From the IMG/VR virus record IMGVR_UViG_2529292913_000006: 50,227 nucleotides of DNA. The stretch is one strand, 5' to 3'. Position numbers and translations under genes: made by a program. Under the pieces are notes generated by a model. It ran no database searches. It saw nothing but the letters and a program-made list of their open reading frames with translations, and had not been told where the DNA came from. This stretch comes from a virus (taxonomy: Duplodnaviria > Heunggongvirae > Uroviricota > Caudoviricetes). This document shows positions 4,581-8,446 of the stretch, piece by piece. The stretch's first letter is position 1; each line of letters starts with the position of its first letter.

Positions 4581-4877
4581 TTATACCTCTGAATCAATAT
4601 CAAACTGGTGGTGAGCAATGGTTTCAACCATGTACCGGATGTGTTCTGCCATGCGCTCCTGAAACTCAACATCGTCATCAAACGCACGGGTAATGGCTTT
4701 TTTGCTGGCCCCGCAGCGTTGCAAATGATCGATACAGAGTGATTCAAACAGGTGCTGTGGAAGACCTTTTTCCATGTCGTCTGCCAGTTCTGCCTCTTTC
4801 TCTTCACGGGCGATCTGCTGGTAGTGACGTGCCCAGCTCTGAGCCTCAAGACGATCCTGAATGTAATAAGCGTTCAT
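4581..4877 (-). CDS. gam: Host nuclease inhibitor Gam (short form)
   Basis: 98-aa protein matching lambda GamS ([21 protein letters not shown]...); ATG at 4877. Confidence 0.9.
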
Positions 4878-4953
4878 GGCTGAACTCCTGAAAATGGCTG
4901 TGAAAATATCGCCCGCGAAATGCCAGGCTGATTAGGAAAACAGGAAAGAGGGG

Positions 4954-5160
4954 TTAGTGATTCAGGCCGTTACCGCGTCCGTCGAGAAAAACTTCTACGA
5001 GCAAATCACGGGTATAAGTGCGCTCGATGCCGCGATGCAGATAAAGCCGTCCGCGTAAATTAGCTGATGCAGTCCAGGTACCATCTTTGTGTTTGACCAG
5101 CATTCCTGGCATGACCGCACCGCGATTAACGGTCTGCGTTCCGTAATGTTGATGAACCAT
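4954..5160 (-). CDS. Small hypothetical protein, first gene leftward of OL (kil/N position)
   Basis: 68 aa from ATG at 5160 preceded by AGGAG SD; the longer 136-aa track ORF starts at TTG and is probably over-extended. Confidence 0.4.
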   Translation of the reverse strand: MVHQHYGTQTVNRGAVMPGMLVKHKDGTWTASANLRGRLYLHRGIERTYTRDLLVEVFLDGRGNGLNH

Positions 5161-5435
5161 AAAAACTCCTGCCCGTAAGCTGGGCTGCTGAACATATAAA
5201 GACTTCTGCGCGTATTCAGGCGGTGGATGGCCGCCGGTTGTCATAACTAAGCCGCCTCGTTGAAGCGACTGAGGTATGAAGTGTTGAGTTGATTTCAGCT
5301 GGTCACACCGACGTTCACGCGTCCGCTTCACCCCTCGCACTCCCCGGAGCCTGCTGAAATTCAAGCTGCGGATCTAAGCGGTCATCGCAACGGTGAATCA
5401 GGTGATTGCCGTATCGTTGTGTTGTTGCGACATGG

Positions 5436-5520
5436 TGATAATAGCTATTGCTATTGATGATATCAATACTTATTGCTATTGCTAGATGTGTTTTGATATT
5501 AAATATTTGATAGCAAAAAG
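5436..5520. promoter_or_regulatory. Putative OL/PL operator-promoter region
   Basis: Repeated TTGCTATTG motifs (5448-5456, 5473-5481, inverted copy near 5510) shared with the cI-cro intergenic region; inverted repeat TATTGAT/ATCAATA at 5453-5469. Confidence 0.5.
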
Positions 5521-5611
5521 AATTAATTTTGTGACTTGCATCGCATAGCGATAACTGAAGCGGGGTTGTGGTGGTTTTTTGAACGGTGTGTGTGATGAGG
5601 GGAGGCAAAAG

Positions 5612-5645
5612 AAAACCCGGCACGGTGGCCGGGACGTTTTATTTC
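5612..5645 (-). terminator. Rho-independent terminator ending the immunity-region operon
   Basis: Stem CCCGGC/GCCGGG (5616-5633) followed on the minus strand by a T-run; sits immediately downstream of the DUF4411 stop. Confidence 0.6.
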
Positions 5646-6151
5646 AAAGAAAAATTATGACTAGCGTATCTTGGAAGAAATTCATATAGTGTTAATGTCT
5701 TAACGCCGTGAGAAGCAGCAGCATCCGGGATCATTATTCTTTTTTTAGGTTTGCCACCGGATGGTTTCTCATGGGTAATAATAGTATATCCATGTGTCAT
5801 CGCATGGGCTATTAAAAAAGCATCTGCTTTTTCATGGCTTGCAAAATCAAACTTTGCCTTTTCGGTAACATCTAATTTAGTTGACCAATTTATTAACTTT
5901 GCATAATTTTCTATTGAACTATGCTCATCTTCGAAGAATGATGATGGTAACTCTTCTTTAATCCATTTACACAATGGATCATCTTTTGCACATAGTTCTT
6001 TTTTTACAGCATTAATGCTATAAATCAGACCATTAATGTGTAAAGCGAGAAGAAAATCCCAAAATATTTTGCAATAATTGAAGTTATATGCAAAGTTTTT
6101 TGCCTCTATGAAGACATTACTATCAATTAAGAATTTTCCATTATGAATCAT
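5639..6151 (-). CDS. DUF4411-family protein (predicted PIN-like nuclease), candidate toxin/effector
   Basis: 170-aa ORF; ATG overlaps the stop of the upstream ImmA-like gene (ATGA coupling); family assignment from memory of sequence features. Confidence 0.75.
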   Translation of the reverse strand: MIHNGKFLIDSNVFIEAKNFAYNFNYCKIFWDFLLALHINGLIYSINAVKKELCAKDDPLCKWIKEELPSSFFEDEHSSIENYAKLINWSTKLDVTEKAKFDFASHEKADAFLIAHAMTHGYTIITHEKPSGGKPKKRIMIPDAAASHGVKTLTLYEFLPRYASHNFSLK

Positions 6152-7287
6152 AGAGATTCTCGTTTTTTATAAAATTCAACAACTGTATCTGCTTTTACAT
6201 TTAGCAGTACGCCTGCTTCCCTTAATGGTAATTGTTGAGACATTGCTTTGGAAATTATTATATTCGTAAGTTTTGGACTGTTACGAACAGGTAATGTGTT
6301 AAAGAAAGAACCACCATTGGATTCTTTTTTGGGCTTATTGTAAGCTTGATCTTTAATTATCTCCAAAGTGTTTCTTTCTATCAAATCTAATTGTAACGCT
6401 TTGATTGCACAAGCGAAATCACTAACCTTAAATAACTTAGAAACCTCTTTTACTCGATAATAATTATTATCGCTGGATGCATTAAGCCAGAAAGATTTGA
6501 AGAGATTATCAGGCATTAAGATTTCAGCAGCAACTTTATTACAAAAAGATTCTATGTTTTTTTCTGTGTCCCACCCAGAGACTCCATCGACTCCAAGCCA
6601 AAGATGAGCCACCTCATGAAATAATGTAAATACCTGCGCAGATAACGCGTCCGAGCTATTTACAAAAATGATCGGAGCAACGCTATCAGATATACAGAAA
6701 CCACGAAACTCTCGCGTGTCAAGTTTTCTTTTATTATTATTACCCACAACACCATTCTTGAAAACTAATACGCCAGTGTCTTCTATTAGTTTTGCCACTT
6801 TAGAAAAATAGCTCTCAAAAGTGACATTTTTTATCTCTTTTTGTATATCAAAATGTATTGTGTTTGCTATGTCTGTAGCAACAACCTTATAATTTAATTT
6901 TCTATTAAATTTAAATTTACCAATAAAATCGAGTGGATCATCATTACCATTTTCTCTTAAATAGTCTTTGTACCACTCAAGTTTATATTCTATATCATAG
7001 TAAACATCAAAAAAATCTTTTCCTAACTCACGGCTATTTATAGCTTGCCTTAAGTCAGGGATCTTGGGTTTGGCTGGAGTTGGTGGCGTTTCAAGAAATA
7101 AAAAACCGAAAGGGATTCCTCCAATTTTTGCCAGTTTTTCTGCTGCGGATTTACTTACCACTCCGTTAAGAAATTTATTAATCTTTTTGGGCATGACTTG
7201 GTCAGCAAGAGTTTCGATAGAAACTCCTTGAGAATTTGCTATCCAATCAATCATCTTCCTAGACAATTGAAATTCAACCGCTGCCAT
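6148..7287 (-). CDS. HTH (XRE-type) plus ImmA/IrrE-family zinc metallopeptidase (COG2856-like)
   Basis: 379 aa; HEXXH motif (FHEVAHLWLG) in central region; N-terminal HTH-like segment; good SD (AGGTGA) upstream. Confidence 0.8.
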   Translation of the reverse strand: MAAVEFQLSRKMIDWIANSQGVSIETLADQVMPKKINKFLNGVVSKSAAEKLAKIGGIPFGFLFLETPPTPAKPKIPDLRQAINSRELGKDFFDVYYDIEYKLEWYKDYLRENGNDDPLDFIGKFKFNRKLNYKVVATDIANTIHFDIQKEIKNVTFESYFSKVAKLIEDTGVLVFKNGVVGNNNKRKLDTREFRGFCISDSVAPIIFVNSSDALSAQVFTLFHEVAHLWLGVDGVSGWDTEKNIESFCNKVAAEILMPDNLFKSFWLNASSDNNYYRVKEVSKLFKVSDFACAIKALQLDLIERNTLEIIKDQAYNKPKKESNGGSFFNTLPVRNSPKLTNIIISKAMSQQLPLREAGVLLNVKADTVVEFYKKRESL

Positions 7288-7316
7288 GTTATCACCTAGT
7301 TAAAAAACCTATTATT

Positions 7317-7354
7317 CAACAATTATTGTTGTGCACCTGATAGCTAACGTCAAG
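7317..7354 (-). promoter_or_regulatory. Putative promoter and palindromic operator upstream of the ImmA-like gene
   Basis: 15-bp palindrome CAACAAT-A-ATTGTTG at 7317-7331; TTGACG -35-like hexamer on minus strand at 7349-7354. Confidence 0.35.
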
Positions 7355-7415
7355 CCTAATTTATTGCCTTACTACAGTAAGCTGAAAAGCGAAGTGCATA
7401 ATTTTGTTCTGATTT

Positions 7416-8108
7416 CTACCCATGCTTTCTATATGTCTGCGGCATGCTCCCGATGACTTTCCCGAAGATGAACACGCGGTTCATCTCGTCTTTCTCGATC
7501 GGGTCCCACGGTGAGTAGCTCTTGTTATCAGAGATAACCAGCAGCTTATCCTTCATCATTTGCAGGCGTTTTACATGGGCGGTGTCGTCATACAGAAACG
7601 CATAGATACCATCACCGTCGAAAGATTTAACCGTGATATCAACGAACAGCAGATCACCTGGTTCGATCGTTCCTGACATGCTGTCACCACGCACGTTAAT
7701 GATGCGGATATTTTCCGCCTTCCTGCCATCGAACATGTGACGAGCATCGTCAAACGAGTATTCAACCGAGCGTAGAACTTCTACAAACTCACGGTTGATT
7801 ACACCCGGCCCGGCACTGACTTCTATATCAAGAACGTCAATTTTGAAGTATTTGGAATGGCTGACAGCAGGCTTCCCTGATTGTTGACCGTCATTTCTCA
7901 TCGGGCCTATGCCTGAAGAGAGCCATTCTGTTCGAACACCCAATGCATTAGCTATTTCAACAATTTTTGTTGAGCCGCGCGCGTTGCCGCTTGTCAGTCT
8001 CCAGATTGTGGGTTGAGCTACGCCAGACGCCTTTGCAAGAGCGCCTTGAGACATTCCAGATTGTTCCATCGCTAGATTTAAGCGATCAGCAAGAGTTTCT
8101 TTTTTCAT
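7416..8108 (-). CDS. cI: Prophage repressor cI (HTH plus LexA-like S24 autopeptidase)
   Basis: N-terminal HTH (MSQGALAKASGVAQPTIWRL), C-terminal S24 domain (GDSM serine, KRL lysine); ATG at 8108 preferred over the track TTG at 8144. Confidence 0.85.
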   Translation of the reverse strand: MKKETLADRLNLAMEQSGMSQGALAKASGVAQPTIWRLTSGNARGSTKIVEIANALGVRTEWLSSGIGPMRNDGQQSGKPAVSHSKYFKIDVLDIEVSAGPGVINREFVEVLRSVEYSFDDARHMFDGRKAENIRIINVRGDSMSGTIEPGDLLFVDITVKSFDGDGIYAFLYDDTAHVKRLQMMKDKLLVISDNKSYSPWDPIEKDEMNRVFIFGKVIGSMPQTYRKHG

Positions 8109-8148
8109 AAGTTTTAATTTATACGCTTGCGTATTGATGGTCAAAACA

Positions 8149-8212
8149 CGTTTTGCTATTGCTTGGATTAATACTCATTGCTATTATTCATTCATTGCAA
8201 TACCAATAGGAA
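8149..8212. promoter_or_regulatory. Putative OR operator region with divergent PRM/PR
   Basis: TTGCTATTG at 8153-8161 and related repeats at 8177-8187 and 8193-8210, between divergent cI and cro. Confidence 0.5.
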
Positions 8213-8218
8213 TTGATA

Positions 8219-8446
8219 ATGACAAATCAAACCATTCAACTCGCAATCAGTATTACAGGTAGTCAAAAACGACTGGCAGATCTATGCGGTGTAGCCCAAC
8301 CCACAGTTTGGCGTTGGCTACACGGTGGCGGAATTGATGCCCGCTATGTAATGAAAATTGTCTCAGCCACTGGTGGAAAGATTAAACCAGCAGATATTCG
8401 TCCCGACCTCGCACCATTGTTTAACGCGAGTAATTCTGCCGCCTAA
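8219..8446 (+). CDS. cro: Cro/YdaS-like HTH regulator
   Basis: Divergent from cI; HTH (SQKRLADLCGVAQPTVWRWL) resembles the cI recognition helix; ATG at 8219 with AGGA SD; track start at 8213 is TTG. Confidence 0.7.
   Translation: MTNQTIQLAISITGSQKRLADLCGVAQPTVWRWLHGGGIDARYVMKIVSATGGKIKPADIRPDLAPLFNASNSAA

Follow-up and report, generated by a model that had tools for sequence, protein, structure and literature searches.

A probable IrrE/ImmA-type peptidase and DUF4411 PIN toxin-antitoxin cassette in the rexAB position of a lambdoid prophage

The stretch of viral DNA considered here, the 50,227-nucleotide IMG/VR record IMGVR_UViG_2529292913_000006 (Caudoviricetes; the whole stretch is referred to below as the window), carries two minus-strand genes directly downstream of its cI-type lysogeny repressor, the first encoding a 379-amino-acid protein with an IrrE/ImmA-type (M78) zinc peptidase domain and the second a 170-amino-acid protein of the DUF4411 family. 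An initial annotation, made from the letters of the window, had described this pair as a replacement for the rexA-rexB module of lambda and as a candidate exclusion or abortive-infection module. Having followed it up with profile searches, structure models and a survey of genomic contexts, we consider it probable that the pair is a toxin-antitoxin abortive-infection or exclusion cassette resembling VapBC52 of Mycobacterium tuberculosis and the RosmerTA systems, and that the prophage carries it as cargo expressed in the lysogen. We lean with similar confidence towards regarding the segment that holds the two genes as a horizontally acquired, AT-rich two-gene toxin-antitoxin cassette, in which a helix-turn-helix (HTH)-IrrE/ImmA peptidase is joined to a member of the DUF4411 PIN family. 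The antitoxin gene comes first and the toxin gene second, and the elements on which the argument rests are the following:

6148..7287, minus strand: antitoxin/sensor gene, 379 amino acids, with an N-terminal five-helix domain, the PDLRQ linker, the IrrE/ImmA (M78) zinc peptidase and C-terminal helices
5639..6151, minus strand: DUF4411 PIN-like toxin gene (predicted RNase), 170 amino acids
6148-6151, minus strand: ATGA overlap of the stop and start codons of the two genes (the plus strand reads tcat), with translational coupling
6604..6618, minus strand: HEVAH zinc-binding motif (H224, E225, H228), read from the translation, within FHEVAHLWLG
7045..7059, minus strand: PDLRQ linker motif (P77-Q81), counterpart of the 'FR' self-cleavage motif of VapB52

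Searched against Pfam at E <= 0.01, the two cassette proteins return Peptidase_M78 and DUF4411 only, with no homology to RexA or RexB: the peptidase domain (PF06114, IrrE N-terminal-like) covers residues 169-291 of the first protein (E = 1.2e-13) and DUF4411 (PF14367) covers residues 7-161 of the second (E = 1.2e-37). The domain assignments that the initial annotation had made are thereby confirmed, and the two overlapping reading frames, their coupling through ATGA and the HEXXH motif in the first translation are all found where it had placed them. Both proteins also match families of the PHROGs collection over their full length (phrog_2439, E = 3e-76, for the antitoxin; phrog_11126, E = 1e-67, for the toxin). 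The further suggestion of a PIN-like nuclease has been strengthened by the AlphaFold (AF2) model of the DUF4411 protein (predicted local distance difference test, pLDDT, 87.4), whose best Foldseek matches in the PDB are all VapC/PIN-domain proteins, with a probability of 0.99-1.00 for the first 19 and a template-modelling (TM) score of up to 0.68; as modelled, the protein has the VapC/PIN fold, and five acidic residues (D10, E52, D58, D110 and E128) are invariant in 32 toxin homologues of 32-85% identity. Conservation in the antitoxin was examined in 33 homologues of 36-82% identity: H224, E225 and H228 of the HEVAH motif, together with the third zinc ligand E246 and the C249-N250 motif that lie downstream of it, are invariant, and the linker motif takes the form PD[LFM]R, with D78 and R80 unchanged throughout and L, F or M between them at position 79. 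The AF2 model of the antitoxin (pLDDT 87.9) comprises a five-helix N-terminal domain (residues 10-64), a peptidase core and a helical C-terminal region; PDLRQ falls within a low-confidence linker (residues 70-90), and the top PDB fold matches, CapP (7t5t) and IrrE (3dti), place the CapP/IrrE-like fold in the middle domain.

A further comparison came from sequence searches of the PDB, which found entries 9VZY and 9VZZ, described there as a 'DUF4411 family protein' with an 'HTH cro/C1-type domain-containing protein', and which are VapC52 and VapB52 of M. tuberculosis (Singh et al., Nucleic Acids Res, June 2026, PMC13273310). The profile of the toxin (A1) matches VapC52 (9vzy_D) at E = 9e-14, with the five invariant acidic residues aligned with acidic residues of VapC52, and the profile of the antitoxin (A2) matches VapB52 (9vzy_A) at E = 1.6e-22 over profile positions 10-334 of 378 and chain positions 4-345. 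This second match runs from the N-terminal domain through the DFRR linker motif to beyond the peptidase, and within it PDLRQ aligns with 'LRDFRR' of VapB52; the last approximately 45 residues of the antitoxin, its C-terminal domain, fall outside the aligned range, so that homology there is not covered by the match. With the single antitoxin sequence in place of the profile, the match to VapB52 covers the peptidase core only (E = 8e-7). The comparison was made by sequence profile, and the Foldseek PDB library, which held entries to April 2026, did not return 9VZY. The HTH-like N-terminus proposed by the initial annotation stands in part: no HTH family is detected by Pfam in the N-terminal 80 residues of six homologues, even at E <= 10, and what speaks for an HTH-like domain is the homology with the N-terminal domain of VapB52 together with the five-helix AlphaFold model.

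VapC52, a tRNase of the PIN type, makes its cuts in anticodon or variable loops, and in the crystals one VapB52 binds a VapC52 dimer (a 1:2 complex) through its N-terminal domain while its C-terminal domain blocks the active site (PMC13273310). Single-stranded DNA (ssDNA) activates the HEXXH peptidase of VapB52, upon which its own toxin-binding N-terminal domain is cut off, probably at the FR motif, and the toxin is freed; the zinc-ligating Cys229 acts as a 'cysteine switch' in the auto-inhibited state (PMC13273310). The peptidase-regulated nuclease architecture that had been proposed for the window thus agrees with the published mechanism of a homologous pair. The two systems share a DUF4411 PIN toxin with aligned acidic residues, an antitoxin gene in first place, and a large multidomain antitoxin composed of an N-terminal domain (toxin-binding in VapB52), an [LF]R linker motif, an HEXXH peptidase of the IrrE/CapP type and C-terminal helices. 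They differ in that their sequences are distant, in that the M. tuberculosis pair is chromosomal whereas the cassette, known from sequence alone, lies in the immunity region of a proteobacterial prophage, and in the residue of the switch: S237 aligns with Cys229 of VapB52 and is a nearly invariant serine in the 33 homologues, and there is no cysteine between HEXXH and E246.

Read by analogy with VapBC52, the cassette may work as follows. In a lysogen the pair would use its own promoter, with read-through from pRM and cI probably contributing to its transcription. The 379-amino-acid protein would hold a dimer of the 170-amino-acid PIN toxin inactive, its N-terminal domain binding the toxin and its C-terminal helices covering the active site, as in the 1:2 complex of VapB52 and VapC52, and the same N-terminal domain would probably also repress the cassette promoter at a palindrome. 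A signal of infection or of DNA damage would then lead the zinc peptidase to cut its own PDLRQ linker and release the toxin, and the freed toxin would cleave RNA, most likely the anticodon or variable loops of tRNA as VapC52 does, so that translation would stop and the superinfecting phage would be aborted. The window itself was found to contain no tRNA genes that could be targets or decoys of the toxin.

That the pair is cargo, and that it occupies the place of rexAB, follows from the layout of the immunity region, the further elements of which are these:

5645..7415, minus strand: variable cargo segment (the cassette), from the cI stop codon to the shared backbone
7416..8144, minus strand: cI-type repressor with HTH_3 and Peptidase_S24 domains (Pfam), directly upstream of the cassette and on the same strand
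7325..7353 (read 7353->7325), minus strand: candidate cassette-borne sigma-70-like promoter, TTGACG-17 nt-AACAAT, from a consensus scan
7317-7331, no strand assigned: perfect 7-1-7 palindrome CAACAAT-T-ATTGTTG, which overlaps the -10 element; candidate autoregulatory operator, with binding presumed
5633-5616, minus strand: intrinsic terminator-like hairpin with a T-run, in the phage backbone
5432-5540, no strand assigned: putative oL/pL-like operator cluster, recognised by an operator repeat and a leftward promoter candidate

The relatives of the window in the phage collection (PhiR70_1, 4A7, Perceval and others) share its cI and left flank at 95-97.5% identity, and the cassette is absent from all of them. 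In blastn comparisons with PhiR70_1, 4A7 and Perceval, backbone identity at this level stops at 5633-5644 and restarts exactly at 7416, the cI stop codon, and the cargo is accordingly delimited to 5645-7415; its GC fraction is 0.28-0.38, against approximately 0.5 in the flanks. The cluster at 5432-5540 contains a 49-nucleotide direct repeat with 76% identity to the oR region at 8137-8185 as well as a leftward minus-strand promoter candidate (5466->5438, TTGATA-17-TATTAT, from the consensus scan). Because this cluster repeats the oR sequence, cI and oL/pL flank the pair just as they flank rexAB in lambda, in agreement with the position that had been assigned to it; the map order is oL/pL, terminator, DUF4411 gene, protease gene, cI, oR and cro, the last at 8213..8446 and diverging from cI. 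To the left, at 4877-5640, the interval from the pL candidate to kil, gam, bet and exo contains no N-like antiterminator gene; the backbone matches Bievrevirus phages (4A7, Perceval), whose kil gene is annotated as phi80-like.

The 128-bp leader upstream of the antitoxin gene belongs to the cargo, and the element TTGACG-N17-(C)AACAAT also precedes the orthologous gene in Klebsiella and in other enterobacterial cassettes with unrelated neighbours, which argues that the cassette brings its own promoter and a likely autoregulatory site. At the promoter, the palindrome-bearing upstream region noticed in the initial annotation has been narrowed to the perfect palindrome at 7317-7331, of which a partial inverted repeat is retained in related cassettes and which is a likely autoregulatory operator. 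Sites of this palindrome type number only two in the 50-kb window, where chance would give 0.09 matches, and the other is a 14/15 twin within the coding sequence of cI (7958-7972). Cross-regulation of the cassette and cI through this twin was considered and rejected: the twin is also present in the cI of cassette-free phages and the CAACAAT half-site is a conserved -10 beside unrelated repressors, so that the resemblance is probably a coincidence. The leader holds a second short palindrome, CTTACTACAGTAAG (plus strand, 7369-7382), approximately 35 nucleotides downstream of the cI stop codon, which is unlike a terminator because it has no T-run. The stretch from cI to the cassette has no predicted terminator on the minus strand, which makes read-through from pRM and cI, as in the cI-rexA-rexB arrangement of lambda, plausible. 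The hairpin at 5616-5633 had been taken for the cassette's own terminator; it is indeed present, but it falls in backbone DNA that relatives with other cargo share at 95-96% identity, so that we reject this ownership and regard it as the phage's own terminator, which ends whichever cargo fills the slot.

The interval between cI and this terminator was surveyed in a spread sample of Escherichia coli records that share the flanks (loci including L014-L016 and L093-L095), in which the cargos were:

SIR2 protein (PADLOC PDC-S25, E = 1e-234)
HipA-family kinase with DUF3037 (PADLOC PDC-M66A/B)
ASCH protein with a 353-amino-acid protein (PADLOC PDC-M11A/B)
MqsA-like antitoxin with two unknown genes
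Panacea-domain pair
DUF6932, DUF7946 or BamE-like lipoprotein
nothing, in some prophages with the same flanks

Defence candidates and genes of the toxin-antitoxin type are enriched in the slot, which is a true hotspot for cargo; most of its cargos are defence candidates only, so far unvalidated. The whole cassette of the window is present in 33 of 5426 complete E. coli genomes at no less than 99.8% identity. In two E. coli genomes, ATCC 43886 (L017, NZ_CP024256.1, 1240-3665) and E2528-C1, the second IS1-split record being NZ_CP035870.1, an IS1 element flanked by a 9-bp target duplication (TGTTGTGGG) interrupts the antitoxin gene at approximately codon 183, and the toxin gene downstream stays 100% identical. 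The plasmid collection gave one record, a 1.3-Mb replicon, and a tblastn search of 50,697 phage records with the toxin gave one distant match.

Beyond this prophage the DUF4411 family is large: among 1.84 billion representative proteins its profile finds, at E <= 1e-3, 5418 clusters at 50% identity, mostly non-viral. In approximately 68 of 75 IMG/VR loci with a DUF4411 relative, the gene that immediately precedes it on its strand is an open reading frame of the ImmA family (E <= 1e-66 against the A2 profile), in most cases with an overlap of 4, 1 or 8 nucleotides, and the pairing of the two genes is obligate; as for the remaining loci, the upstream sequence is too short in two (L026, L038), the match extends over no more than a fragment of the query in two others (L091, L092), and three (L058, L085, L086) were not examined further. 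The survey of neighbourhoods also supports the association with prophage immunity regions: among 58 distinct reading frames just upstream of the pair and on the same strand in viral contexts, 30 carry Peptidase_S24, the domain of cI-type repressors, and 26 carry HTH_3, and these upstream repressors are only 8-40% identical to cI of the window. The pair stands beside a repressor also in three Providencia prophages with three different cI/cro pairs, in a Klebsiella Rac-like prophage and in a P22-like immI region, and it stands alone, outside any phage, in a small Actinobacillus island. On one metagenome contig (L010, 2404-9247) it adjoins large DUF499 (HEPN_Swt1), DUF1156 and SNF2-helicase genes, a setting that resembles a defence island.

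Several observations weigh against the reading of the pair as an abortive-infection or exclusion cassette and should be set out together. VapC52 overexpressed alone protects M. smegmatis from phage D29, whereas co-expression of toxin and antitoxin does not (PMC13273310), so that the family offers no proven case of defence by a complete DUF4411 pair at native expression. The DUF4411 protein has no match among the PADLOC v2.0.0 models at E <= 0.01, and hence does not belong to a recognised RmrT toxin family, nor does it have one in NCBIfam; the antitoxin matches the PADLOC capP model at 52.7 bits and thirteen PADLOC RmrA models weakly (E 6e-8 to 8e-4, approximately 17-30 bits), some of them over nearly its full length. 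Since the toxin has no PADLOC model and the RmrA matches are weak, the locus is not callable as a recognised defence system. A toxin of strong effect that is expressed constitutively would agree poorly with the viable IS1-split allele, which is perhaps tolerated through polarity or because the N-terminal fragment still neutralises. If ssDNA were the trigger, SOS induction of the carrier prophage should in principle set the cassette off as well, to the apparent detriment of the prophage itself, and the serine at the position of the cysteine switch means that the trigger may differ from that of VapB52. There is a fairly slim chance, in our estimate, that the prophage-borne proteobacterial branch has swapped the zinc-ligating cysteine switch for serine because its signal is not bulk ssDNA but, for example, a specific protein or nucleic acid made by a superinfecting phage. 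If this were true, such sensing would let the cassette stay silent during the SOS induction of its own prophage and during Red-mediated recombination, and, with many unrelated cargos at the site, the lambdoid cI-terminator slot would be a general hotspot for defence genes expressed in the lysogen, with selection favouring cargos that are compatible with the carrier phage.

Three other explanations of the locus have to be weighed against that of a defence cassette. The pair could be an addiction module that stabilises the prophage by killing or arresting cells that lose or inactivate it, with the stopping of other phages not being its main benefit, and to this we give a modest chance of being right. 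The classical architecture of overlapping genes, antitoxin first, with a candidate autoregulatory operator is what such a module would have, the pair is also found in small non-phage islands and at chromosomal sites, and defence at native expression is unproven for the family; yet the antitoxin is a sensor protease of 379 residues and not a labile small protein, the tolerated IS1-split allele argues against strong post-segregational killing, RosmerTA with the same kind of antitoxin defends against phage, and the hotspot is explained less well, for the slot is that of lambda rexAB and sister prophages fill it with PADLOC defence candidates and not with toxin-antitoxin genes alone. A general stress toxin-antitoxin system, which would arrest growth upon DNA damage or metal stress with no specific role against phage and for which the prophage would be merely a permissive insertion site, seems improbable. 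VapBC52 has been linked to copper tolerance and intracellular survival (PMC13273310), which together with its ssDNA trigger and the very large, mostly non-viral family would suit such a role, but the repeated placement of the pair beside the lysogeny repressors of unrelated phages and within a hotspot of defence candidates would not be expected of a neutral site.

Very improbable, in our judgement, is that the protease is an ImmA-type anti-repressor or induction accessory, which would cleave cI or another phage or host repressor upon damage while the nuclease aids the lytic programme, for example by host shut-off. The precedent is real, in that ICEBs1 and some phages have immA directly downstream of the repressor gene whose product it cleaves (PMC10440598), the M78 fold is common to IrrE and CapP, which cleave partner repressors, and in about half of the viral contexts a repressor gene is the immediate upstream neighbour of the pair. 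At the level of sequence, however, cI bears an S24 autoprotease domain of its own and occurs at 95-97.5% identity in cassette-free phages as well, so that ImmA would not be needed; the neighbouring repressors are mutually unrelated (8-40% identity), whereas the protease is always coupled to DUF4411; the pair is also found with no phage repressor nearby; and the protease, most of which is homologous to VapB52, a protein that cleaves itself, contains a conserved [LF]R linker that resembles a substrate.

The lysogen-expressed defence cassette that we favour is a new example of a known toxin-antitoxin family in a telling place, and not a new kind of system. Makarova and colleagues are said to have predicted, in 2009, three-component toxin-antitoxin systems of the HTH-DUF955(COG2856)-PIN type. 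Genes of the family DUF4411.1 that lie downstream of fused HTH-DUF955 genes were likewise predicted to form three-component toxin-antitoxin systems by Matelska 2017 (PMC5499597). These predictions have exactly the same gene pair in the same order; they are purely computational, and the prophage context downstream of cI is not remarked in them. RosmerTA, a zinc-peptidase antitoxin with a variable toxin, was validated as phage defence by Millman et al. 2022 (10.1101/2022.05.11.491447), and Ernits et al. 2023 (PMC10440598, NetFlax) noted that the ImmA antitoxin node has PIN-like partners and also validated a RosmerTA system carried by a phage. The initial annotation, which knew of no experimental characterisation of such a pair as a defence system, is outdated on this point: prediction dates from 2009-2017, validation of RosmerTA from 2022-23, and the structure and experimental testing of a DUF4411 pair from 2026.

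The antitoxin of the cassette, whose M78 domain is certain, resembles that of RosmerTA, in which an N-terminal HTH-like domain (undetected by Pfam here) is joined to an ImmA/M78 zinc peptidase and the partner toxin is exchangeable; some RosmerTA members are phage-borne and several have validated anti-phage activity, but the characterised RmrT toxins differ from DUF4411, RmrT-D5, for example, depolarising membranes. With lambda RexAB it shares the place on the map, between cI and the terminator and oL on the cI strand, RexAB being a two-gene abortive-infection module expressed in lysogens; there is no relationship in sequence or fold. RexAB consists of a membrane channel, RexB, and the activator of that channel, RexA, whereas a protease-antitoxin and a predicted RNase are found here. 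ImmR/ImmA of ICEBs1, IrrE/DdrO and CapP/CapH have in common with the antitoxin an M78/IrrE peptidase fold activated by a signal of the DNA-damage type and, in the case of ImmA, a position downstream of a repressor gene, yet those proteases cut a separate repressor, whereas here the substrate-like motif is in the same polypeptide; in contrast to CapP/CapH, neither a cyclic oligonucleotide-based antiphage signalling system (CBASS) nor a CapH gene is present. The canonical VapBC systems are set apart by their small VapB (about 8-13 kDa) with an AbrB, RHH, Phd or similar DNA-binding domain in place of the 379-residue M78 peptidase. The pair is absent from the earlier experimental screens of Rousset 2022, Vassallo 2022 and Liu 2026, and no description of the locus was found in the literature on RmrA/RmrT and on rexAB hotspots. 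What is new here is the cargo-slot context with other defence candidates, the terminator owned by the backbone, the placement beside cI in 30 of 58 viral contexts and the exchange of serine for cysteine.

The only characterised member of the DUF4411 family is a mycobacterial chromosomal locus, for which protection from phage required the toxin to be overexpressed alone. The E. coli lambdoid copy, placed in a slot expressed in the lysogen, offers a tractable natural setting for asking whether an intact HTH-IrrE/DUF4411 pair defends its host at native levels, and it is equally suited to asking what triggers a protease that has no cysteine switch and how a prophage escapes its own ssDNA-sensing cargo during induction. 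The slot itself, with its interchangeable cargos, is a useful place in which to look for more defence candidates.

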